64,000 bases of DNA from an uncultured Christensenella sp. (GCA_910578065.1 CAJTPB010000009.1:17149-81148); one strand, 5' to 3'. Counted from the stretch's first letter, positions 4,861-48,855 are shown. Made by a program: numbers and translations. Notes: generated by a model not told the origin, from the sequence alone.

Positions 4861-6549
4861 TCAATTTTCCATTTGATACCATTCGCAATGCAAATATTCG
4901 CTTTGCAAATTCGCTGCGTTGGTTTCGGGGTTTGTTACGTCGATCTGGTCTGCTTGTTGGGAGCCGTATTGAATATACCAATTTGCCGTATCGGCAAAGG
5001 TAATTTTTTCAAGTTGAAACCCTTTAAACGCATAGGCATGAATGGCGTAAGCGCTTCCGTTTACGGCTGCGGGAAGGGTAATTTGTTTTTCGCTTCCGAT
5101 ATACCGCATGAAACTGTAATTGCCGTCGGCATCTTTCCAGAACAAGAAATCGCCTACTTTTTCTACTGCGCTGCCGTCCGCTTCGGTTAAGATTTCCAAA
5201 TAATCGGAAAAATAGTATTTGCCGATTTTCTCGTTGATCTGCGCATTGGTGAAAGAGGTTTTGTTGATCACTCTTATAAGCGTGCGGTTTGCGTGAAAAA
5301 GGTAATTGCCCAGCGTTTCAATGCTTTGTGGCAAGGTAACTTCTACCAGCGCGTTTTGTTCGAACGCGTTGTCGCCGATTGTCTTTAATCCTTCCGAAAA
5401 AGCTGCCGAATAAATATTTCCGCCTTGGGCGAACGCGTATTCGCCGATTTCCGTTACGGAAGAGGGGATCTCTACTTCGGTAATCTTATCGTAGCGGAAA
5501 AATGCGTATTGACTGATTTTGCTTGTTCCTTCGGGAATCGTCAGCTTTCCTTCTACCAATTTTCCGTCGATGAAAAGTTCGCAGTTTTCGCTTTCGTTAA
5601 AGCTGTAAAGCGGGGTAGAACCGACGTTTTCCAACTCGATTTCGCACCAATTTTTTAACGTGCCCTCGAAAATCACTTTATTTAATTTCGGAAAGGCGAG
5701 CGCGCCTTTTTTGCTCCGTTTCAGCGTTGCGGGCAGCGTAATGCAGGTTACGTTGTACATTTGGGAATTGTAGTAAAAATTTTCGGGAATTTCTTCCGCG
5801 TGCAAAAGAGTAAGCGCTTTGGGCGATTCGCTAAAAATGCTATCCAACACGACGTTTACGGTTGCGGAATAGTGATCGAGTTTGCAATTGATAAAAACAC
5901 CTTCGTCTAACGTGGCGGAATCGGCGTTTATCGTAATGCTTTTTAAAGCGCTGCAATCGCCGAATGTCTGAACGCCCAGCGTTAAACGCTCTTCTCCCAT
6001 AAATTGTACCGATTCGAGCGCGATGCAATCGTCGAAAACCATATCGCCGAGTACGGCGTTTCCGTTTACCGTCGCCGTTTTTAAATACTTATTTTCCGCA
6101 AAGGCAGAACTTTCGATATCGGTAACGTGCGCGGGAAGGGCGATCGTTTCCAATCCGGTATTTCGAAAGGCGGAAGATTCGATTTTGGTAATGTTTTTTC
6201 CCCAATTCACCGTTTTCAAATTCTCGCAATCTTGAAACGCGCTCGAGGCAACGATTTTGATATTGTCGGAAAAAGTTACGCTTTTAATTCCCGTTTCTTC
6301 AAATGCTCCGGTGCTGATTTCGGTAACCGGTTTTCCCTTGTACTCTGCGGGAATGACAAGATCTGCGTTTTCCCACATATCTTTGTATTCCGAATCAACA
6401 GCGACGCAATAAGAAAGTCCGTCGTCCGATTTCCAGTAATAAAATCCTTTCCCTTCGTCCGAATCGTCGCCGCATGCGGCAAGCGTGCCCATCGCCGCAA
6501 ACAATGCGGAAGCGGTAAGCAGGGTAAAAATTACGTTATGCTTTTTCAT
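4861..6549 (-). CDS. BspA-type leucine-rich-repeat surface lipoprotein (second paralog)
   Basis: GGGAGG RBS and ATG at 6549 (MKKHNVIFTLLTASALFAAMGTLAACGDD, lipobox LAAC), followed by LRR_5-like repeats. Confidence 0.8.
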   Translation of the reverse strand: MKKHNVIFTLLTASALFAAMGTLAACGDDSDEGKGFYYWKSDDGLSYCVAVDSEYKDMWENADLVIPAEYKGKPVTEISTGAFEETGIKSVTFSDNIKIVASSAFQDCENLKTVNWGKNITKIESSAFRNTGLETIALPAHVTDIESSAFAENKYLKTATVNGNAVLGDMVFDDCIALESVQFMGEERLTLGVQTFGDCSALKSITINADSATLDEGVFINCKLDHYSATVNVVLDSIFSESPKALTLLHAEEIPENFYYNSQMYNVTCITLPATLKRSKKGALAFPKLNKVIFEGTLKNWCEIELENVGSTPLYSFNESENCELFIDGKLVEGKLTIPEGTSKISQYAFFRYDKITEVEIPSSVTEIGEYAFAQGGNIYSAAFSEGLKTIGDNAFEQNALVEVTLPQSIETLGNYLFHANRTLIRVINKTSFTNAQINEKIGKYYFSDYLEILTEADGSAVEKVGDFLFWKDADGNYSFMRYIGSEKQITLPAAVNGSAYAIHAYAFKGFQLEKITFADTANWYIQYGSQQADQIDVTNPETNAANLQSEYLHCEWYQMEN

Positions 6550-13628: not shown

Positions 13629-14546
13629 TTACAATACTCTGCGCGAGGTGATATAGTAGCTCCAACGCGTTGCCGAAATCTGTTCGATCTTCGCATAGTC
13701 GGAAGCCGTGTGCAAAATATAGTTTTCGCCCAGATACAGCGCAACGTGTCCGATCCGTTCCACCCCCGTTTTGTTATAGCGGGAAGCGTTGGTAAAGAAC
13801 ATCAAGTCGCCCCGTTTCAGATTTTCCTTTTTTACGGGCTGCCCCTGCGAAACCTGCGTGCGGGTAGTGGTGTTCAGCAGCACGCCCGCGCCCTCGTAAA
13901 AGATATACTGCATTAAGGAAGAGCAGTCGAACTGTTTCACCGTAAAGCCCTTTAAAAAGTTGCCTTTTCCGTCGTGCAGGCGCACGGCGCCGTACACATA
14001 AGGAACGCCCAGTCTGCGCAGCCCTTCGTCGATCACGTTTTCTACGTCTTCTTCGCCTTTATCCAGAACGGTTACGGAAGTATACGCCGTGTTCGCGCTG
14101 ATATAAGCGGTTCTGCCTTTATAATACGTTTCGTACCAATCGCCTACCTTGCCCGTATATTTTAACAGTACGTCTTTTTCTACCGTGCCAAGCGAGGTGT
14201 GCGCGGTTCCCGCGCCTGCCCGCACGTTTACGCCGTTGTGGTGCACGTATACATATTGCGCTTTTACGGGTTTGGGCGGTTCGGGTTCGGGCTCCGGTTC
14301 CGGTTCGGGAAGGGGATCTTCCGCGGCGGGGGGATCGGTTTCTTCCGATTGATCGGGTTGTTCCGGCTCCGCAGGCGTTTCGCCTTCAACGGGCGGCGCC
14401 TCTTCGGGAATATCTTCGGGGAAAAGGGAGGGGATATCGATTTCCTCTTCCTTTTCGGGTACATACGAATCCGCGTTCTCGGAACACGCACCGAGCGGGA
14501 CGGATAAAAGCAGTGCGGCGAGCGCGACTGCGAACGTCTTTTTCAT
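13629..14546 (-). CDS. Secreted NlpC/P60 cell-wall endopeptidase lipoprotein with a Pro/Glu-rich linker and an SH3b domain
   Basis: AGGAGG RBS, ATG at 14546, lipobox LGAC, PEPEPEPEPEPP linker, then FDCSSLMQYIF ... GHVALYLG (Cys/His catalytic pair). Confidence 0.85.
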   Translation of the reverse strand: MKKTFAVALAALLLSVPLGACSENADSYVPEKEEEIDIPSLFPEDIPEEAPPVEGETPAEPEQPDQSEETDPPAAEDPLPEPEPEPEPEPPKPVKAQYVYVHHNGVNVRAGAGTAHTSLGTVEKDVLLKYTGKVGDWYETYYKGRTAYISANTAYTSVTVLDKGEEDVENVIDEGLRRLGVPYVYGAVRLHDGKGNFLKGFTVKQFDCSSLMQYIFYEGAGVLLNTTTRTQVSQGQPVKKENLKRGDLMFFTNASRYNKTGVERIGHVALYLGENYILHTASDYAKIEQISATRWSYYITSRRVL

Positions 14547-14727
14547 ACTTAAATCCTCCTGTTTGGCTGTTTTTCGGCGGGGATATGTGAAGTTCCTTCG
14601 CCGTGGAACTATCGTATCAGAAAATATACGCAAATACAAGTATTTCGGGCTGGTGAGTTACAGGAAAAAGCGGCAAAATTTGGAAGTTGAGTTTGCCCAA
14701 TTTCAAGCAATGTGATATACTGCTATC

Positions 14728-15026
14728 GGGCAAAAACTTTTATATATTCGGTTGCGTTCCGGCGCAGGTTCTGCCAACGCTCATTCGCATTACTTAACGG
14801 CTTCGGGTGACGATAACGGTATGTTGGCGCTAACGCCAAATTGTCTGCGGCCGCGCGCTTCGTCCCGACCGTTCAAAAACGGAACCTTGAGAACTCGCAT
14901 TGTAGCATACATGCGGGCAGTGAGATGGGGCAAGAAGGGGTTTTTGTCCTGCGCTCGAAAAGAGCCGAATTTGCGTTCAACCGAACTTGCGGCGAAATCT
15001 GCGGGAAAAACGGTTGAACTTTTTTT
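14728..15026 (+). ncRNA. Array unit A (candidate structured RNA / non-canonical sORF transcript); cassette 14764-14841
   Basis: TGaTATACT at 14713-14721. Stem CTCGCAT/ATGCGGG at 14894-14900/14911-14917. Type-1 terminator ending in T7 at 15020-15026. 5' end predicted, not mapped. Confidence 0.5.
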
Positions 15027-15049
15027 GTGCGGCATGGTATCATAAAAAC

Positions 15050-15346
15050 GGGCAAAATCTTTTAGATTCCTGGTTGCGTTCCGGTCACGACGGTACGAAT
15101 TCTCGAGGATTATATCTGACTGCATCCGAAGACCGTGATAGCATTTCGGTAGTAACGCCGTATTGTCTGCGGCCCGCGCTTCGCTCTGACCGTTCAAAAC
15201 GGGAACTTGTGAACTTGCATTGTGGCGTACATGCAGGCAGTGAGATGGGGCAAGAAGGGATTTTTGTCCTGTGCTCGAAAAGAGCCGAATTTGCGTTCAA
15301 CCGAACTTGCGGCGAAATCTGCGGGAAAAACGGTTGAACTTTTTTT
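15050..15346 (+). ncRNA. Array unit B; cassette 15086-15163
   Basis: TGgTATCAT at 15035-15043. Stem CTTGCAT/ATGCAGG at 15214-15220/15231-15237. Type-1 terminator with T7. Confidence 0.5.
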
Positions 15347-15369
15347 GTGCGGTATGGTATCATAAAAAC

Positions 15370-15667
15370 GGGCAAAATCTTTTAAATTCCTGGTTGCGTT
15401 CCGGCCTTATTGCTTACACGAGGGATTCCCATTGTTTGACCGCTACCGGTGATCTTAACTTTGCTACCGTGGGTACGCCGAATTGTCTGCGGCCCGCGCT
15501 TCGCTCCGACCGTTCGAAAACGGGAACTCGTGCACCTGCATTGTGGCGTACATGCAGGCAGTGAGATGGGGCAAGAAGGGATTTTTGTCCTGTGCTCGAA
15601 AAGAGCCGAACCCGATCCGACCGAATCCGCGGCGTAAAATTCTGCGGAAAAAAGCGGTCGGATTTTT
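15370..15667 (+). ncRNA. Array unit C; cassette 15406-15483
   Basis: TGgTATCAT at 15355-15363. Stem CCTGCAT/ATGCAGG at 15535-15541/15552-15558. Type-2 terminator GATCCGACCG...CGGTCGGAT with T5. Confidence 0.5.
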
Positions 15668-15690
15668 CGAATTGTGATATAATCATTTAC

Positions 15691-15986
15691 GGGCAAAAAC
15701 TTTTATGTATTCGGTTGCGTTCCGGCTATGAATTTAATACAAACACTGCGTTTCACACGACTGCATCGGGTTTTTATGACAGTGTTTCAGTTCTTACGCC
15801 GAATTGTCTGCGGCCGCGCTTCGCTCCGACCGTTCAAAACGGGAATTTGTGAACTTGTATTGTAAGATACGTGCAGGCAGTAAGATGGGGCAAGAAGGGG
15901 TTTTTGTCCTGCGCTCGAAAAGAGCCGAATTTGCGTTCAACCGAACTTGCGGCGAAATCTGCGGGGAAAACGGTTGAACTTTTTTT
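15691..15986 (+). ncRNA. Array unit D; cassette 15727-15804
   Basis: TGaTATAAT at 15675-15683. Stem CTTGTAT/GTGCAGG at 15854-15860/15871-15877. Type-1 terminator with T7. Confidence 0.5.
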
Positions 15987-16009
15987 GTGCGGTATGGTAT
16001 CATAAAAAC

Positions 16010-16308
16010 GGGCAAAATCTTTTAAATTCCTGGTTGCGTTCCGGCAATCCTCATAACGCGACGGTTTCCTATTATGTGACCGCCGTAGGTGACTATAATG
16101 ATAGTACGGTAGTAACGGCAAATTGTCTGCGGCCCACGCTTCGCCCGACTGTTCAAAAACGGAAACTCGTGCACCTGCATTGTAGCATACGTGCAGGCAG
16201 TGAGATGGGGCAAGAAGGGGTTTTGTCCTGCGCTCGTAAAAGGGCCGAAACCGATCCGACCGTTTCCGCGGCGTAAAAAATTTGCGGAAAAGTACGGTCG
16301 GATCTTTC
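16010..16308 (+). ncRNA. Array unit E; cassette 16046-16123
   Basis: TGgTATCAT at 15995-16003. Stem CCTGCAT/GTGCAGG at 16174-16180/16191-16197. Type-2 terminator with a weak T-run. Confidence 0.5.
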
Positions 16309-16329
16309 GAATTGTGATATAATAAAGGC

Positions 16330-16628
16330 GGGCAAAAACGTTTATATTCCTGGTTGCGTACCGGTAATTTTGGTTACCAGAAGTATTCGATCTGCATGAC
16401 CGTTGTTGATGATTACATTGCTGCTAACGTTGACACGCCGTATTGTCTGCGGCCGCGCTTCGCCCCGATCGTTTTAAAACGGACTCGCGTACCTGTACTG
16501 TGATTTACATACAGGCAGTAAGATGGGGCGGGAAGGGGTTTTTGTCCTGCGCTCGCAAAAGAGCCGAACCCGATCCGACCGTTTCCGCGGCGTAAAAAAT
16601 TTGCGGAAAAGTACGGTCGGATCTTTCG
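16330..16628 (+). ncRNA. Array unit F; cassette 16366-16443
   Basis: TGaTATAAT at 16315-16323. Stem CCTGTA/TACAGG at 16492-16497/16510-16515. Type-2 terminator with a weak T-run. Confidence 0.5.
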
Positions 16629-16707
16629 TATATCTGATTGGGAGCGGAATCGCTTTACAATTATTTGCGGGTTTGCTATAATACGCCCGATACAAAAGGA
16701 AACGGTT

Positions 16708-19089
16708 ATGGAAAAAGTAGTTATCGAAGAAACGAAAGCGCAAAAGCGTTCTTTCTATAAAACGGTATGGGCATTACTCATTCCCATAGCGTTGCAAAAT
16801 TTGATTACCGTAGGCGTAAGCGCGGCGGACGTTTTAATGCTTGGCGCAATCGGCGACGAAGCGGCGGCGGAAGTGGCGCTTTCCGCGGCGTCGCTTGCAG
16901 GGCAGGTTACGTTTATTTTTTCGCTGATCCTATTCGGGCTGAGTTCGGGCGCGGCGGTGCTTACCGCGCAGTACTGGGGCAAGGGCGATCGCGTTTCGGT
17001 GGAAAAAGTGCTTGCGCTTACCGTGCGGTTTGCCTATTGTTTCGGCATTCCCTTTTTTCTTGCCGCGCTGTGTTTGCCCGAACCGCTCGTGCGTGTGTTC
17101 GCGGGCGACGAAGCCGTTATCGCGGAAGGGGTAAAGTATCTGCGCATTGTATCCGCTTCGTACCTGTTCATGTCGTTCAGCGTGGTGTTTTTAAACGTAA
17201 TGCGCAGTGTGGAACGGGTGATTGTTTCTTCCGTCGTATACTTTGTTTCGCTGGTCGTAAACGTAATTTTAAACGCGGTGTTTATCTTCGGCGCGGGGGC
17301 GCTTCCCGCAATGGGCGTTTCGGGCGCGGCGATCGCAACGCTGTGCGCGCGGGTATTTGAATTTTGCATTGTCGTTGTGTATGCATGCGCGGCAAAACTT
17401 CCCGTGCGATTCCGCATTCGCTATTTGTTCCGTTCGGAGAAACAGTTGGTAAAAGATTATTTCCGTTATGCGGGTCCCGTGCTGCTGAACGAACTTTTTT
17501 GGGGAAGCGGCACCTCGGCGGTAACGGCGGTGATCGGTCATTTGGGCAACGCCGCTTCGGGGGCGAACGCCGTCGTGCAGGTGGTGCGTCAGCTCGGCGT
17601 CGTGTTTACGATGGGCGTTTCCAACGCCGCGGCGATCGTGATCGGCAAGACCATCGGCGAGGGCAGGGAAAAAGAAGCGCGCGTATATTCGGGGCGTTTG
17701 GTGTGCATGTCTGCGATCACGGGGGTGGCGAGCGCGGCGGTCGTGCTTTGCTGTATTCCCGTTTTAACGCGGCTGCTCGATTTAAGCGAAGAAGCGAAAA
17801 GCAATCTTATTATGATGCTTTGCGTGCTTGCGGTGTATATTTTATTTCAATCGGTCGCCTGCGTGATCGTAGTAGGACTGTTGCGGGCGGGCGGCGATAC
17901 GCGGTTCGGGCTGATCACCGACGTAGGGTTTTTATGGCTGTTTTCCGTGCCTGCGGGTGCGATTGCGGCGTTTGCTTTGCACGCGCCCTTGTGGGTAACG
18001 TACATTCTGCTTTCTTCCGACGAGGTGTTAAAGGCGGTTCCCGTGTTCTTGCGGTACCGTTCGGGGAAGTGGCTGAAAAACGTTACGCGCGATCGTCTCG
18101 AACAAAACGATTGCGTTTCCGCGGTTGAAACTGCGGCGGAATGTGGTATAATAGAAGAAGAGCAAGAAATAACGAAAGGGGAAGGCGGTATGGTTTTGGA
18201 AAGTTTCGACGGAAAAAAGATTTGCGTTTACGAATGGCTGAACGCGGAAGATCCCAAGGGGATCGTACAGATCGTGCACGGCATGACGGAGCATGCAACG
18301 CGGTACGAAGCGTTTGCGCGCTTTTTGAACGAACACGGTTTTTTGGTCGTTGCCGACGATCACCGCGGACATGGGGCAACCGATCCCGATACATTGGGCT
18401 ACTGCAAGGGGAATATGTTCCGCGATACGGTGACGGACGAGGGCATGATCACCGATCATTATAAGGCGAAGTTCCCCTATCTTCCCTACTTTGTGTTCGG
18501 ATTTTCGTACGGCTCGTTTTTAACGCAAAGTTACATCGGGCGGTTCGGCGATAAGATCGACGGCGCCGTGATCGGCGGAAGCAATTATAAAAAGGACGGC
18601 GAAGTTTACGCGGGTTCATTTGTAACGGCGGTTTGCAACTTTTTCGGCGGAGAGAAAAAGCCTGCGAAGCTGATCGAAAAACTTTCGTTCGGCGCGTACG
18701 AAAAGCAGTTCGAAGACGGGGAATGGTTAAGCAACGATCAAGAAAACAACGCCCGTTACCATGCCGACCGCCTATGCGGATTCACATGCTCTAACCGTTT
18801 TTATGCCGACTTTTTTAAGGGGCTGAAAAGTTTGTACACAAAAAAATATATCAAATCGCTGAATAAAGATTTGCCGCTGCTCCTTGTTGCGGGCGCGAAA
18901 GATCCCGTAGGCGATCAAGGCAAAGGCATGCAAAAACTGCGCGATTTTTATGCGGAAGAAGCGGGGGTAAAAGACGTGCGGCTTGTTCTGTTCGAAAATT
19001 CCCGTCACGAATTTTTAAACGAAAAAGAGAACGCGGAAGAAAAGCGGAATACCCTGTTGCAATTCTTCCAAGAGTTCGGCGCAAAATAA
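16708..19089 (+). CDS. MATE family efflux transporter (about the first 450 aa) fused in frame to an alpha/beta hydrolase (lysophospholipase/monoacylglycerol-lipase-like, about the last 310 aa)
   Basis: 12-TM MATE-like N-terminal part. The C-terminal part has HGMTEHATRYEAFARFL, DHRGHG and a GFSYGS nucleophile elbow. There is no stop between the two parts. Confidence 0.8.
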   Translation: MEKVVIEETKAQKRSFYKTVWALLIPIALQNLITVGVSAADVLMLGAIGDEAAAEVALSAASLAGQVTFIFSLILFGLSSGAAVLTAQYWGKGDRVSVEKVLALTVRFAYCFGIPFFLAALCLPEPLVRVFAGDEAVIAEGVKYLRIVSASYLFMSFSVVFLNVMRSVERVIVSSVVYFVSLVVNVILNAVFIFGAGALPAMGVSGAAIATLCARVFEFCIVVVYACAAKLPVRFRIRYLFRSEKQLVKDYFRYAGPVLLNELFWGSGTSAVTAVIGHLGNAASGANAVVQVVRQLGVVFTMGVSNAAAIVIGKTIGEGREKEARVYSGRLVCMSAITGVASAAVVLCCIPVLTRLLDLSEEAKSNLIMMLCVLAVYILFQSVACVIVVGLLRAGGDTRFGLITDVGFLWLFSVPAGAIAAFALHAPLWVTYILLSSDEVLKAVPVFLRYRSGKWLKNVTRDRLEQNDCVSAVETAAECGIIEEEQEITKGEGGMVLESFDGKKICVYEWLNAEDPKGIVQIVHGMTEHATRYEAFARFLNEHGFLVVADDHRGHGATDPDTLGYCKGNMFRDTVTDEGMITDHYKAKFPYLPYFVFGFSYGSFLTQSYIGRFGDKIDGAVIGGSNYKKDGEVYAGSFVTAVCNFFGGEKKPAKLIEKLSFGAYEKQFEDGEWLSNDQENNARYHADRLCGFTCSNRFYADFFKGLKSLYTKKYIKSLNKDLPLLLVAGAKDPVGDQGKGMQKLRDFYAEEAGVKDVRLVLFENSRHEFLNEKENAEEKRNTLLQFFQEFGAK

Positions 19090-45594: not shown

Positions 45595-48500
45595 ATGAAA
45601 AGAAAACTGTTAGTATCCCTCTTTTCGGCTGCGGCGCTTTGCGCGTGCATCGGCGCGGGCTGCGCCGTCGAGCCGACGGAAAGCGAACTGAACGGCATAA
45701 AAAATTTCGGGTTCGAAAATCCCGCGCACGAGAACGAATATCTTTCCCGCTATGCAACGGACGAAGGGTTTGAGATCGACGGCGTGCTAAGCGAAAACGT
45801 TTGGCAGGAAAACGGCACGGCGTTCACCTTCGAACACGAATCGAGCACGGCGGAAAACCCCGTTACGATGACGAGCAAAAGCTACCTCGGCGAAAAGGGG
45901 GTATACCTCGCGCTTTCGGTAAAAGATACGGCGGTGTACTACTCGCCTGATCGAAAGGCTTCGGGCAATACCTCTGTAGAAGTGTACCTCGGCGCGTTCG
46001 GCAAAACGGAATGGGACGGCAACAGTTTCCGCATTTCCGTCGTGCCCACGGGGAACGAAAGTTGCACCACCGAAATGCGCACCTACCGCACCAAAAAGGC
46101 GGCTTTTACGGGGGATACCGACACGCTGAAAGCGGAATGGAGCCTTTGGTACAAAGCGCATAAAGCGGCATGCCGTGTAAACGGCGCGGGCATCAACACG
46201 GGCTTTAACGAGGGGTACGACGTAGAATTGTTCGTGCCGTACGAAAGTTTGGGGATCGAACAAAAGCCGGAAGCGGTGCAGTACATGACGGCGTTTTACC
46301 ACGTAGAATCGGAAGCGACGAATGCAGACAGCGTTTGGACGAAGTGCGATCAAAACGTGGCGACAACCTCGCTCGGCGGCTGGCTGGTCGCAACGAACGA
46401 CGCGATCGGATATTATTCGGAAATGGCTGATCAAATCTTTGCCGAGAAAGACGGCTACATGACCATTGACGGCAAGCTGATCGAATCCGTTTGGCATGCG
46501 GAAAACGCGCTTACCTACCGCCCGAAGAACGCAGCTTACGGCACGGATGCTTCCGTTTCGACGATCGCTCACCTTTCCGATTTGGGCGTGTACGTCGGCA
46601 TGACGGTAAAAGACAGCAAGGTTTACGCAACGGGCGCGCGCAACGTAAAGTTCAACAGCGGCGTAGAACTGTGGGTACAGAGCGCGGACGCGGAAGCGGT
46701 AAACGAAAAATCGGTGCAGCTTCGCGTCGACGCGCTGGGCAACGTAAGCAAATGGCAGGGCACGGGCGCGACGGACGGCGGCGCCTTTGCCGAAAAATAC
46801 TTCCCTTCCATTTCGGCGGTAACGCTGCTCGGGTGCGAAAAGGTGAACGGCGCCGTGGCAAGCGATACGGCGGAAGGGTTCTGCGTAGAGGTGTTTATTC
46901 CTTGGTCTTCCCTCGGCATGAACGAAAAACCGAACTCGGTTGCGGTGTATCCTTCTTACGTGCACGCGGGCAACAATACCAATACGAACAACACCACCAA
47001 CGAATATTGGCAGTATTTCCAGCTCGCTTCGCAGACGGCGGCAAGAACGCAGTCGAAATCGGCGTTCCTGCGCCTTACGGACGGCGGCTTCGAAGGGGTT
47101 TTGATTACGGAAAGTTTTGCGTTCAACGCGGATGATTTACAGCAAGACGGCAGCTATAAAACCCGCTTCGATCTGATCAAAGAATACCGCCCCGCGCCCG
47201 CTTCGCAAAAGCTCGACTCTATCGCCGTGACCGATGCGGTTTGCGAAGAAGAGGGGATATCGATCACCCATTTGGGCGAAGGGGAATACGAAATCGTCTT
47301 CTCGCCGCAGGCGGTGCTCGCTTGCACGAACGGCAAAGAATTTACCCTGCGTTCGGGCGCGTTAAGCGCAACGGCTACGGCGCAATATCTGCCCGTTTTC
47401 TTCGACGGCGAGGTGAACGATTCGGAAGGCTACGCGCCCCCGTACAGCTTCGTCACGCAAGACAGCGGCGGAAAATACAACGAAATTACCGTAAATGCAA
47501 AACCCGTGTCCGCGGGCATGGTGCTTGCAATTACAATGCGATCTTCGTATATCAACTATCAAACAACGGAATTAGGAAACGGAAACAACGGCGGCGGCAT
47601 CGAGATTATGATGGCAAGCACCCCTTCGGCAACCGATACGAACGGCATTTGGTGGCGTCTGTTCGCAGACGGCAGCGCGCGCTGCGTGCGCGATCTAACC
47701 AAGGGCGCGCCGCTGAACGAGCGCACGAAAACGCCGCTCGGAAGCAGTTCGTACGCGGTGGGGTTAACGCCCGTCGATGCGGAAAATCCCGCAGAGGGCT
47801 ACTCTCGCATGACGGCGGAATTCTTTATTCCGTATGCGGCGGTCGGCGCAGCGGGCGCGGAAGATTTCTATTTCGTCGTCGGCGCGGTCGGCACAAAGGT
47901 TTCCGATAATTCTTCGCTTGCGATCCGCTGGGCAGACGGTTCCGCCGTTGCAAAACCTGCCGACGCACTGTGGACGAGCGCGGCTTCGGCGGGTGCGAAC
48001 CGCTTGCAAGATCAAACGGTAACGGTAACGTCAGAAGAGGGCGGCTGCTCGTTTAAAGTAAAAACGTCCGTCGGCGAATACACTTACGCGAAAGGTTTAA
48101 ATTTCGTGGGGGGGGGTACGGTAGCGGAAGGCGTGTTCGGCACGTATACTTGTACCCTTACGCAGCCGGCAACGCTAACCGCAACGCGTGGCGGACAAAC
48201 GGTAACCGTTACGGTCGTATACAACGCCGCGCTGTCATTGGACGGCACTGTAAACGACGGCGAATATACGGGGCATTTTACCTATCGCATCGGCGGCACG
48301 GGTATCGGGAAAGACGCAAACGATTACGCGGATATCAAAGTTTCTTACTACCTTTCTTCGTCCGCCCTATACCTCGCGTTCGAAGCGACGGAAAACACCG
48401 CGAAAACGCTTACGAATACGGGCGCGAACACAAACCAAGGATCGGCGGGAATGGACTTTGTGGTTGCTTCTGCCGAAAACAAGGCGAGTTATTACCGCGC

Positions 48501-48855
48501 GTATGCTTCGGGATTGATGCGCAAAAAATCGGTTGCGACGATCGCGACGGGTAGTTTCGGCGCGCCCGCGGCGCCTGCGGCGGAAAACTTTATGCGGGGC
48601 AGCCACACGGTAGAAGCGGGGCAGACGCAAAGCGGGATCACGCAATGGGCGATGGAATGGAAAATCGAATTTTCCGCGCACGGCGTTTCTTCCGCAGACG
48701 ATTTGCGCTTCCTGTTCGGGTGGATCAACGCGAACAACGCCGACCGTTTTTACGGTAAACTTACGGGGCAGACGAACGCGATTACCTCTTATGGCGAATA
48801 TTTCTCGCTTGCCGACATTATCGCGCTTGCCGAAGAAGAACAGGCGGGAGCGTGA
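45595..48855 (+). CDS. Large (1086 aa) surface lipoprotein with repeated carbohydrate-binding (CBM9/DOMON-like) modules
   Basis: Signal peptide with a Cys-containing lipobox-like site (LCACIGAGC). Modules recur of the form IDG.L.E.VW...... V(K/T)D..VY .... E(V/L)(Y/W). The family call comes from sequence pattern only. Confidence 0.6.
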   Translation: MKRKLLVSLFSAAALCACIGAGCAVEPTESELNGIKNFGFENPAHENEYLSRYATDEGFEIDGVLSENVWQENGTAFTFEHESSTAENPVTMTSKSYLGEKGVYLALSVKDTAVYYSPDRKASGNTSVEVYLGAFGKTEWDGNSFRISVVPTGNESCTTEMRTYRTKKAAFTGDTDTLKAEWSLWYKAHKAACRVNGAGINTGFNEGYDVELFVPYESLGIEQKPEAVQYMTAFYHVESEATNADSVWTKCDQNVATTSLGGWLVATNDAIGYYSEMADQIFAEKDGYMTIDGKLIESVWHAENALTYRPKNAAYGTDASVSTIAHLSDLGVYVGMTVKDSKVYATGARNVKFNSGVELWVQSADAEAVNEKSVQLRVDALGNVSKWQGTGATDGGAFAEKYFPSISAVTLLGCEKVNGAVASDTAEGFCVEVFIPWSSLGMNEKPNSVAVYPSYVHAGNNTNTNNTTNEYWQYFQLASQTAARTQSKSAFLRLTDGGFEGVLITESFAFNADDLQQDGSYKTRFDLIKEYRPAPASQKLDSIAVTDAVCEEEGISITHLGEGEYEIVFSPQAVLACTNGKEFTLRSGALSATATAQYLPVFFDGEVNDSEGYAPPYSFVTQDSGGKYNEITVNAKPVSAGMVLAITMRSSYINYQTTELGNGNNGGGIEIMMASTPSATDTNGIWWRLFADGSARCVRDLTKGAPLNERTKTPLGSSSYAVGLTPVDAENPAEGYSRMTAEFFIPYAAVGAAGAEDFYFVVGAVGTKVSDNSSLAIRWADGSAVAKPADALWTSAASAGANRLQDQTVTVTSEEGGCSFKVKTSVGEYTYAKGLNFVGGGTVAEGVFGTYTCTLTQPATLTATRGGQTVTVTVVYNAALSLDGTVNDGEYTGHFTYRIGGTGIGKDANDYADIKVSYYLSSSALYLAFEATENTAKTLTNTGANTNQGSAGMDFVVASAENKASYYRAYASGLMRKKSVATIATGSFGAPAAPAAENFMRGSHTVEAGQTQSGITQWAMEWKIEFSAHGVSSADDLRFLFGWINANNADRFYGKLTGQTNAITSYGEYFSLADIIALAEEEQAGA

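Follow-up and report, generated by a model that had tools for sequence, protein, structure and literature searches.

A tandem array of six RNA genes in an uncultured Christensenella sp. with probable homology to the template RNAs of diversity-generating retroelements

The array and its setting

Diversity-generating retroelements (DGRs) are reverse transcriptase (RT) systems that copy an RNA template into cDNA with adenine errors, the cDNA then overwriting part of a protein gene. Here we analyse a tandem array of six RNA genes, candidate relatives of such templates, in a stretch of 64,000 nucleotides from an uncultured Christensenella sp. (GCA_910578065.1 CAJTPB010000009.1:17149-81148; hereafter the window, with positions counted from its first letter). 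The array (14693-16628, + strand) consists of six head-to-tail units, A to F, with a period of 319-322 bp, and lies between a divergent NlpC/P60 gene (13629-14546, - strand) and a MATE/hydrolase gene (16708-19089, + strand). The repeat, its period and the positions of a conserved TTG had been described in a first-pass annotation of the sequence and were recovered by Tandem Repeats Finder (320-bp period, 5.5 copies, 14831-16592), by alignment and by two anchors that occur six times each, GGTTGCGTNCCGG (14750, 15072, 15392, 15713, 16032 and 16352) and TTGTCTGCGGC (14841, 15163, 15483, 15804, 16123 and 16443), the spacing between them being exactly 78 nt in all six units.

Each unit begins with an extended -10 promoter and a leader, continues with the 78-nt variable segment and a conserved domain that folds, and ends in a terminator. 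As had been annotated, a promoter of this type precedes every unit: a consensus scan finds the sigma-70-type arrangement TTGNNN-17/18-TATNNT with an upstream TG on the + strand in units A, B, C and E, and by reading of the sequence units D and F have TGATATAAT as the -10 element and no good -35. The -35 elements of units B, C and E fall inside the 3' arm of the preceding terminator, that of unit B being the source of the next one. Two sequence versions of the terminator occur, both of them nested hairpins, which keep the same shape through three to four fully compensated pairs, and the T-runs that follow it differ in strength as first described (T7 in A, B and D, T5 in C, weak in E and F). Unit A (14713-15026) has TGATATACT as its -10 element and an RNA start near 14728, followed by the variable segment (14763-14840), the 3' domain (14841-14969) and the terminator hairpin (14975-15019). 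Unit B (15035-15346) combines a -35 element, TTGAAC, in the arm of the previous terminator with the -10 element TGGTATCAT, and its RNA would start near 15050. Unit C (15355-15668) ends in terminator version two (GATCCGACCG...CGGTCGGAT), and units D (15675-15986), E (15995-16308) and F (16315-16628) complete the array, all on the + strand.

The surroundings are of a housekeeping kind, with metG, tatD, a small radical-SAM gene, ksgA and a PHP-domain gene on the NlpC/P60 side and the MATE/hydrolase gene, ABC/FtsX and fusA on the other. The remaining genes of the window serve sugar-acid metabolism or encode an ABC sugar transporter, glycoside hydrolases, hrcA-grpE-dnaK-dnaJ and similar functions. 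ARAGORN found no tRNA or transfer-messenger RNA (tmRNA) genes. An Rfam scan of the whole window at gathering thresholds returned nothing, and one of 14500-16800 at E<=10 gave no relevant match.

The variable segment as a coding template

The variable segment had been described as exactly 78 nt long and as barely aligning between units at the nucleotide level. The length stands, but the segment is not featureless: just one of its six frames is open, and the translations in that frame can be aligned as protein. The only frame that is free of stops in all six window cassettes, as we call these segments, is the phase of the conserved TTG, and the probability of any frame being stop-free in six shuffled cassettes is 0.0008. 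Among 34 distinct cassettes from the arrays of several species, this frame contains 2 stops against 15-80 in each other frame, and the cassette lengths (72, 75, 78 and 84 nt) are all multiples of three, so that each indel amounts to whole codons. The six translations, those of cassettes A (14763-14840, AGSANAHSHYLTASGDDNGMLALTPN, in the frame of the TTG at 14752 and template-repeat-like), B (15085-15162, HDGTNSRGLYLTASEDRDSISVVTPY), C (15405-15482, LIAYTRDSHCLTATGDLNFATVGTPN), D (15726-15803, YEFNTNTAFHTTASGFYDSVSVLTPN), E (16045-16122, NPHNATVSYYVTAVGDYNDSTVVTAN) and F (16365-16442, NFGYQKYSICMTVVDDYIAANVDTPY), all on the + strand, align as a beta-hairpin-like peptide, x7-S-x-Y-L-T-A-x-G-D-x-N-x3-V-x-T-P-N, flanked by W-L-R-S-G before the cassette and C-L-R-P after it. 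Three-base periodicity of conservation across the six cassettes is not significant (p=0.36), and the coding signal is taken from stops, indel lengths and homology. A shared RNA fold within the variable segment was sought and none was found.

No Shine-Dalgarno sequence precedes the TTG, in contrast to the neighbouring genes, which do have one, and past the cassette every unit has an open reading frame (ORF) tail of different frame and length, the products being 45-97 aa long. For these two reasons the cassette, while holding coding information, is unlikely to be translated in place. The 3' domain carries frame-shifting 1-nt indels between units, and its earlier designation as non-coding therefore holds.

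Cassette C belongs to a family represented in several strains and species. Its members have invariant codons in common, even at synonymous sites, and differ at eight NNY codons, which vary at positions 1 and 2 and always have T or C in position 3. To judge from these alignments, the NNY pattern is probably the footprint of adenine mutagenesis of AAY codons.

Homology to DUF6273 variable regions

When the six window cassettes are combined in a profile, all 35 of its columns align, from end to end, with the variable region at the C-terminus of prophage proteins of ~205 aa (hhalign probability 93.2%, E 2.9e-7). Additionally, P0011, a protein from a profile search that contains related cassettes, matches positions 128-170 of 172 of Pfam DUF6273 with 28.3 bits (cut-off 23.5). 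The C-terminus of DUF6273, a C-type-lectin-like domain, is where DGRs introduce diversity (PMC10743442, PMC11792537). The target family recovered by protein search consists of proteins of 201-209 aa, encoded in a prophage early region, which end in W-L-R-S-G, 24-25 hypervariable residues and W-L-S-V-R-P-A-L. An ordinary phage DUF6273 gene (L107; L-numbers denote comparison contigs or loci), which came from a degenerate border-pattern scan of viral contigs, has a variable region that starts with the same CCTGGTTGCGTTCCGGC as the window units. Thus, the in-frame, stop-free template of the units has a homologue in the variable region of an established DGR target domain.

The prophage targets (L115:8001-8609, also L116 and L117; L125:10001-10627; L126) belong to a sister system. 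They are ~205 aa long and have no signal peptide, with ERF, SSB, DNA methylase and Lin1244_N protein genes upstream and VRR_NUC downstream, and they are genes of the early/replication region rather than tail or surface genes. For a remote DGR to diversify an early, intracellular phage protein would be unusual.

The same RNA beside RT and bAvd genes

Some members of the family are physically linked to RT-Avd genes. In L127, an RVT_1 RT gene and bAvd are followed by one Asn-rich template unit whose flank is identical to the window's, TGGTTGCGTTCCGGC, and L118 likewise has RT, bAvd and a template unit. In L119/L120, RT and bAvd are followed ~600 bp downstream by a template unit that has a -10 box and a terminator to itself, and then by a 760-aa target; two further template units, both complete, lie on the opposite strand at a distance of ~5 kb. 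The L100 contig, the source of P0011, opens with a bAvd-like ORF (PF22296, E 2.6e-7) and continues with a template array of short units with six delimitable cassettes, in which the leader and the W-L-R-S-G flank are as in the window; each unit has its own -10 box and no individual 3' domain, and a single common 3' domain and terminator stand at the end. Four of the L100 cassettes are Asn(AAY)-rich, like classical template repeats. Mixed with them (L100:292-1250) are two adenine-poor cassettes that resemble variable regions (positions 325 and 486).

The RT-linked units have their parts in the same order as the window units: a -10 box, the leader, W-L-R-S-G codons, the template, (V/L)-R-P-A-L codons and hairpins, and then GAAGG with the leader-complementary strand, a stem-loop with an A-rich stretch, and the terminator. 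Correspondingly, a nucleotide profile of 14 stand-alone units matches RT-linked templates with E-values of 5e-16 (L100), 3e-13 (L119), 2e-12 (L127) and 1e-4 (L118), and these matches extend through the 3' domain.

These sister systems also provide evidence for the use of several templates. The variable region of the L115 prophage target corresponds to L100 cassette 5 in codons 1-6 and to cassette 6 in codons 7-24, with all differences at template adenines; a template/variable-repeat pair of the classical kind, differing at template adenines, is thus present in this sister system. Between L119 and L120 the three templates are identical and the variable regions differ, being mosaics of two templates. 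Because the variable regions of L115, L119 and L120 combine several templates, template arrays are, as far as these sequences indicate, a working feature of this DGR lineage. The sister prophage target has no RT within 8-10 kb, from which it follows that DGR components can sit far apart.

Several features of these loci are recorded here in their own right. In L118 the called bAvd ORF (L118:4315-5043) reads through TGA (AAT TGA GGT called as N-W-G), so that translation with table 11 does not give the query, and the organism probably uses recoded TGA. Just past the template unit of L118, on the opposite strand (~5255-5335), lies what by eye resembles a tRNA gene. The AT-rich DGR locus of L119 (6760-9430 and 11700-14060) has many short interspersed repeats between its template units (GTCATCCCGAGC... 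and CCCCACAAAA.AGC.ATTTTGTGGGG).

A conserved RNA scaffold

The fold was examined on 14 units from the window and three other contig groups, presumed to be different species. RNAalifold predicts a closing helix between the leader and the 3' domain and seven further helices. In this fold 94.5% of cells are paired, compared with 37-52% with slid partners, and both sides have changed at 20 pairs, compared with 5-8; none of 500 shuffles matches the observed values. The compensatory stem changes first noticed in the 3' domain are real. In the closing duplex (helix 1) pairing is complete (100%), and 6 of the 14 units show an AU/GC swap; the strands of this duplex are recoded yet complementary in the window (GGGCAAAAA / UUUUUGUCC), L099 (GGGCAAAAAUU / AAUUUUUGUCC), L103 (GGACAAAGAU / AUCUUUGUCC), L100 (GGGCGAAAGC / GCUUUCGUCC), L118 (GGAUAAAAUUU / AAAUUUUAUCC) and L127 (GGGCGGCGGACU / AGUCCGUCGUCC); in L119 the pairing is imperfect. 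The first-pass annotation had weighed such a 5'-3' helix against a local GGGCAA stem. As the GGGCAA hairpin is absent outside the window species, the long-range helix, which covaries across species, is the conserved one of the two.

In DGR RNA, sequences upstream and downstream of the template form a duplex, the 'cPRT Stop', which is adjacent to a stem-loop with adenosines after it; a template:primer duplex lies two nucleotides away on the downstream strand, and Avd-binding stem-loops are located just past the template, as seen by cryo-electron microscopy and comparative analysis (bioRxiv 10.1101/2023.10.23.563531). The layout of unit B can be read against this arrangement, with the roles of the individual elements assigned by position and hence provisional. 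The 5' strand of its closing duplex (15050-15057, GGGCAAAA), present in every unit, would be the counterpart of the upstream strand of the 'cPRT Stop' duplex. It is followed by the conserved 5' flank (15071-15084, TGGTTGCGTTCCGG, codons W-L-R-S-G), which is also the 5' border of DUF6273-type target variable regions and of RT-Avd-linked templates. Beyond the cassette, the G+C-rich 3' flank (15163-15187, TTGTCTGCGGCCCGCGCTTCGCTCT, codons C-L-R-P-A-L-R-S) is homologous to the VRPAL end of the targets, and its 3' part, CTTCGCTC, takes part in helix 4.

Two covarying hairpins come after the template. The short one, CCGTT-CAA-AACGG (15190-15202), directly follows it and shows GC to CG swaps in L099. 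The long one, CTTGCAT...ATGCAGG (15214-15237; helix 6, ~10 bp with a small loop), has double changes in 7 of 10 pairs and is a candidate Avd-binding stem-loop; either hairpin, or neither, may have that role. In helix 4, which has double changes at 4 pairs, the template 3' border CUUCGCUC pairs with GGGGCAAGAAG (15247-15257), 3 nt before the closing strand, a position that may correspond to that of the template:primer duplex in Bordetella phage DGR RNA. The 3' strand of the closing duplex (15261-15269, TTTTTGTCC) is then followed by the stem-loop GCTC-GAAAA-GAGC and CGAA (15273-15289), that is, by a stem-loop and adenosines beside the putative stop duplex, a layout with an A-rich tail that is shared with L099, L100, L103, L118, L119 and L127. 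The nested terminator (15295-15346, GTTCAACCG...CGGTTGAAC, inner CTTGCGG/CTGCGGG, T7) contains helices 7 and 8; all these unit B elements are on the + strand. The window RNAs thus have the upstream/downstream duplex, the adjacent stem-loop and the adenosines of DGR template RNAs.

Stand-alone arrays in strains and other species

The window species is common in gut metagenomes, and among contigs whose P60 protein is identical the array has 4, 5 or 6 units. Between these strains units have been lost, duplicated or reordered, and one extra cassette type occurs; each cassette type is almost invariant, as a donor would be. Divergent arrays in other species were traced through ORFs that gene callers had placed over them. 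One is in another species (L099), one lies between a metallophosphoesterase gene and pyrR and has 2-4 units depending on the strain (L101, L102, L121-124), and one lies beside a response-regulator gene (L103, in the metagenome-assembled genome (MAG) GCA_022791285.1). Stand-alone arrays are thus found in housekeeping contexts in at least two further species. By synteny, no array is present beside P60 in 80 P60-homologue loci of Christensenellales-like MAGs, and the array is therefore not a conserved neighbour of P60.

Some units in L099 (402-592) and L101 (532-1040) end right after the CLRPA codons and run into the next promoter, and the cassette at L101:873 is diverged, with one in-frame stop. 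The ENA contig of L099 ends in an Illumina adapter (1026-1040, AGATCGGAAGAGCAC), and the cut of its fourth unit is therefore an assembly artefact, not a real end. Directly upstream of the P60 homologue of a different species (L010:5650-5880) there is a 109-bp tandem repeat (2.1 copies), at the same position as the window array and unrelated to it in sequence. Many P60-homologue MAG contigs (L008-L087) stop within a few kb of P60, and no repeat that would explain the break was seen in the sequence available.

Two further ORFs of the window deserve mention. That at 16708-19089 is a single ORF of 793 aa in which an alpha/beta hydrolase domain (Hydrolase_4 / S33) forms the C-terminal part behind a MatE transporter domain, a fusion called identically in all strains; that at 45595-48855 (1086 aa), flanked by genes for GH43 and a SASA esterase, has zero Pfam matches.

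Searches for partners and for other classes of element

The absence of cas, RT, recombinase and transposase genes from the window, already reported, was borne out by Pfam scans of all large ORFs and a YxDD scan, which showed no Avd either. In tblastn searches of the window, the L118 and L119 RTs gave no DGR-clade RT at E<=1, four bAvd proteins gave no Avd, and DGR target proteins gave no match. A second copy or target of any cassette was sought in the window and the 80 related loci, where matches were at chance level, and no template/variable repeat pair was found for the window cassettes in the window or in protein databases. Two BspA-type leucine-rich-repeat genes of the window were considered as targets and rejected, as they have no WLRSG...RPAL end.

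Wider searches for the element were likewise negative. An exact-pattern scan with the core of the 3' domain found nothing in species-representative genomes or viral contigs, the 10 matches to a two-block pattern in JGI metagenome contigs were all attributed to chance by nhmmer, and blastn of two units against phage and plasmid records gave none. A six-frame composite protein query was dominated by unrelated candidates and found nothing, and viral contigs contained no related element when scanned with the constant block of the cassette C family, a bAvd fragment, L100-type borders or window-type borders. CRISPR-like arrays, TIGR arrays, omega/bridge RNAs, retron msr-msd, tmRNA, type I toxin-antitoxin repeats, arrays of precursors of ribosomally synthesized and post-translationally modified peptides (RiPPs) and a decayed repeat-protein gene were set aside, since either the required proteins are missing or the anatomy does not fit.

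Identity and possible function of the array

The homology of the cassettes to DUF6273 variable regions, the RT-bAvd-linked relatives and the published DGR elements together make it very probable that the six units are homologues of DGR template RNAs of a DUF6273-targeting lineage. The kind of RNA, which the first-pass annotation had not recognized, can thus be named. A match to a known family had been specified there in advance as the result that would overturn the proposal, and for the type of RNA such a match now exists, because the units are homologous to DGR template RNA; the tandem arrangement remote from an RT is still unusual. The array accordingly does not represent a new RNA class but the RNA part of a DUF6273-targeting DGR lineage, arranged as six tandem genes remote from the enzyme. 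No account of comparable template arrays came to light in the literature that could be searched, and six complete template-RNA genes in tandem in a housekeeping region, with adenine-poor cassettes, are unusual.

If the array works as a DGR component, the six RNAs would be made separately, and in each the first 8-10 nt of the leader would form the upstream strand of the closing duplex, followed by the W-L-R-S-G codons, the 26-codon cassette, the G+C-rich (C/V)-L/V-R-P-A-L codons, two stem-loops, the strand that pairs with the template 3' border, the downstream strand of the closing duplex, the stem-loop with adenosines and the terminator. An RT-Avd encoded elsewhere in the genome or in a prophage would bind these RNAs in trans, reverse transcription would run from the 3' border of the cassette up to the closing duplex, and the cDNA would replace, wholly or partly, the variable region in a DUF6273-type gene. 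Because the six cassettes are mutually different and adenine-poor, the array would serve as a library of alternative, largely pre-set templates and not as one hypermutable template. That the units act at present as trans-acting donors, a library of low-mutability templates, is the reading that we favour, if only slightly over its negation.

Several observations weigh against such a present-day role. The window holds no RT, Avd or DUF6273-type gene, and none lies within 10 kb of the arrays in L103 and L121-124. No protein with a variable region matching window-type cassettes was found among 5.8 billion proteins, nor among 1.84 billion cluster representatives, phage records and viral contigs, whereas sister-type targets were easily found in the protein search; the sister target family, too, escaped the profile search, which has limited sensitivity for short variable regions, and the database negative for window-type targets is therefore weak evidence of absence. 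The window cassettes are not the adenine-rich (AAY-rich) templates expected of a classical DGR: with 10% AAY codons and 25% adenine they resemble variable regions (9% and 17%) and not RT-adjacent templates (40-57% and 33-40%). Furthermore, the stop-free frame and the NNY codons could be relics of an origin in adenine mutagenesis and are no proof of present-day selection. By their sequence, the window cassettes look like once-diversified sequences that are now fixed in template scaffolds.

These observations feed the main alternative, that of a stranded remnant in which template RNA genes persist without function after the loss of RT, Avd and target. The lack of DGR proteins in 64 kb, the lack of a matching variable region in the protein databases searched, the adenine-poor, variable-region-like cassettes and the decay of some units (unit 2 of L099 and units 2 and 3 of L101 lack the 3' domain, and one has an in-frame stop) would all be expected of such a remnant. 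However, promoters, leader, closing duplex and all helices have been kept with compensatory changes across several species, and arrays occur at different chromosomal sites in at least three species. In addition, cassette indels are multiples of three, in-frame stops are almost absent from the 34 cassettes, six of the 11 between-strain differences within one cassette type are synonymous, and the components are dispersed even in the demonstrably active sister system. On balance, we regard a functionless remnant as unlikely, though it deserves to be taken seriously.

A second alternative turns the direction of transfer around: mutagenised cDNA from an Asn-rich master template would have homed into the units, making the cassettes non-coding 'variable repeats' or spoiled templates. 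This would account for the NNY variation at the eight codons of the cassette C family, which is what adenine mutagenesis of AAY codons gives, for the equal composition of the cassettes and true variable regions, and for the two variable-region-like cassettes beside four Asn-rich ones in L100. Yet the cassettes are almost identical among strains of the window species, whereas true variable regions differ, as between L119 and L120; eight adenines are invariant in the cassette C family; and cassettes A, B, D, E and F differ from that family at non-adenine positions too, which one master template cannot explain. Such recipients therefore strike us as quite improbable.

Two other explanations have very little in their favour. 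A new structured regulatory or dual-function RNA with a translated small ORF (TTG, M-R-S-G, 26 variable residues, C-L-R-P...), and not a retroelement, which would extend the view of the first-pass annotation, would fit the lack of an Rfam match, the conserved TTG and the one frame open through the cassette, but it is very hard to reconcile with a TTG that, unlike the starts of neighbouring genes, has no Shine-Dalgarno sequence, with ORF tails that vary from unit to unit (45-97 aa), with a cassette whose homology covers no more than the final ~35 residues of a lectin-like domain of ~170 residues, and with the homology of the entire scaffold to RT-Avd-linked template units. Equally remote is the idea that host template-like RNAs act as decoys that capture a phage DGR RT-Avd and misdirect or block phage protein diversification. 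In its favour, the only sister-system targets found are prophage genes, and the arrays are chromosomal, in housekeeping regions and with the full protein-binding scaffold; against it, the same scaffold is the system's own template in L127 and L118, and a decoy would have no need of in-frame, stop-free and diverse cassettes.

Returning to the donor library, one extension of it, speculative and in our estimate improbable, is that the array is a heritable archive, in which once-diversified variable regions were written back into template-RNA scaffolds, so that a limited number of proven variants could be reinstalled, whole or as mosaics, in a DUF6273-type gene by largely faithful retro-conversion. 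The DGR would then be a cassette-switching system with memory instead of a random mutator, one that keeps its templates in the core chromosome, away from the RT, and this too we put forward with low confidence.

The usual picture of a DGR, in descriptions and in searches alike, is a compact cassette in which a single template lies beside the RT. If the array is active, a DGR can draw on and combine tandem, independently transcribed templates far from its enzyme; surveys confined to the surroundings of RT genes would miss such templates and part of the reachable sequence space, and the adenine-poor templates would point to a switch-like mode alongside hypermutation. A compact scaffold of ~300 nt with a replaceable insert of 72-84 nt would also suit engineered DGR mutagenesis with several templates supplied in trans.

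Comparison with known systems

Silent-cassette gene conversion, as from pilS to pilE in Neisseria and in vls of Borrelia, relies on promoterless DNA donors for recombination. Like these systems, the window array is a tandem library of in-frame, non-expressed cassettes with conserved borders, the number and order of units varying by strain. Unlike them, its cassettes sit in a predicted transcribed retroelement RNA scaffold, and their transfer would use cDNA.

More than one template per element is also known from the two-template DGRs (Stenotrophomonas sp. SKA14, PMC6642488), which differ from the window in that both templates are held in a conventional cassette and are not independent transcription units; mosaic template use is not reported there. 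With the DUF6273 DGRs of gut Bacillota and their phages (tentaclins, PMC10743442; Faecalibacterium prophages, PMC11792537) the array shares the target-domain family, the WLRSG ... VRPAL borders of the variable region and the nature of this region as a beta-hairpin at the C-terminus of DUF6273. Those elements, however, are compact, with one template beside the RT, whereas the window has six templates only.

A structural parallel is the avd-TR-Sp RNA from BPP-1, a phage of Bordetella (Handa et al., PMC6182149, bioRxiv 10.1101/2023.10.23.563531). There is no primary-sequence similarity between that RNA and those of the window, and the elements were matched by position and covariation. In contrast to BPP-1, the window has six tandem RNA genes, each with its own promoter and terminator and not placed between avd and RT; its 64 kb hold no RT or Avd, its cassettes are adenine-poor and mutually divergent, and no variable repeat was found. 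Nevertheless, both have a coding-like template enclosed by a duplex of upstream and downstream sequences, a second duplex with the template 3' border only a few nucleotides from the first, and a template homologous to the C-terminal variable region of a lectin-fold target.

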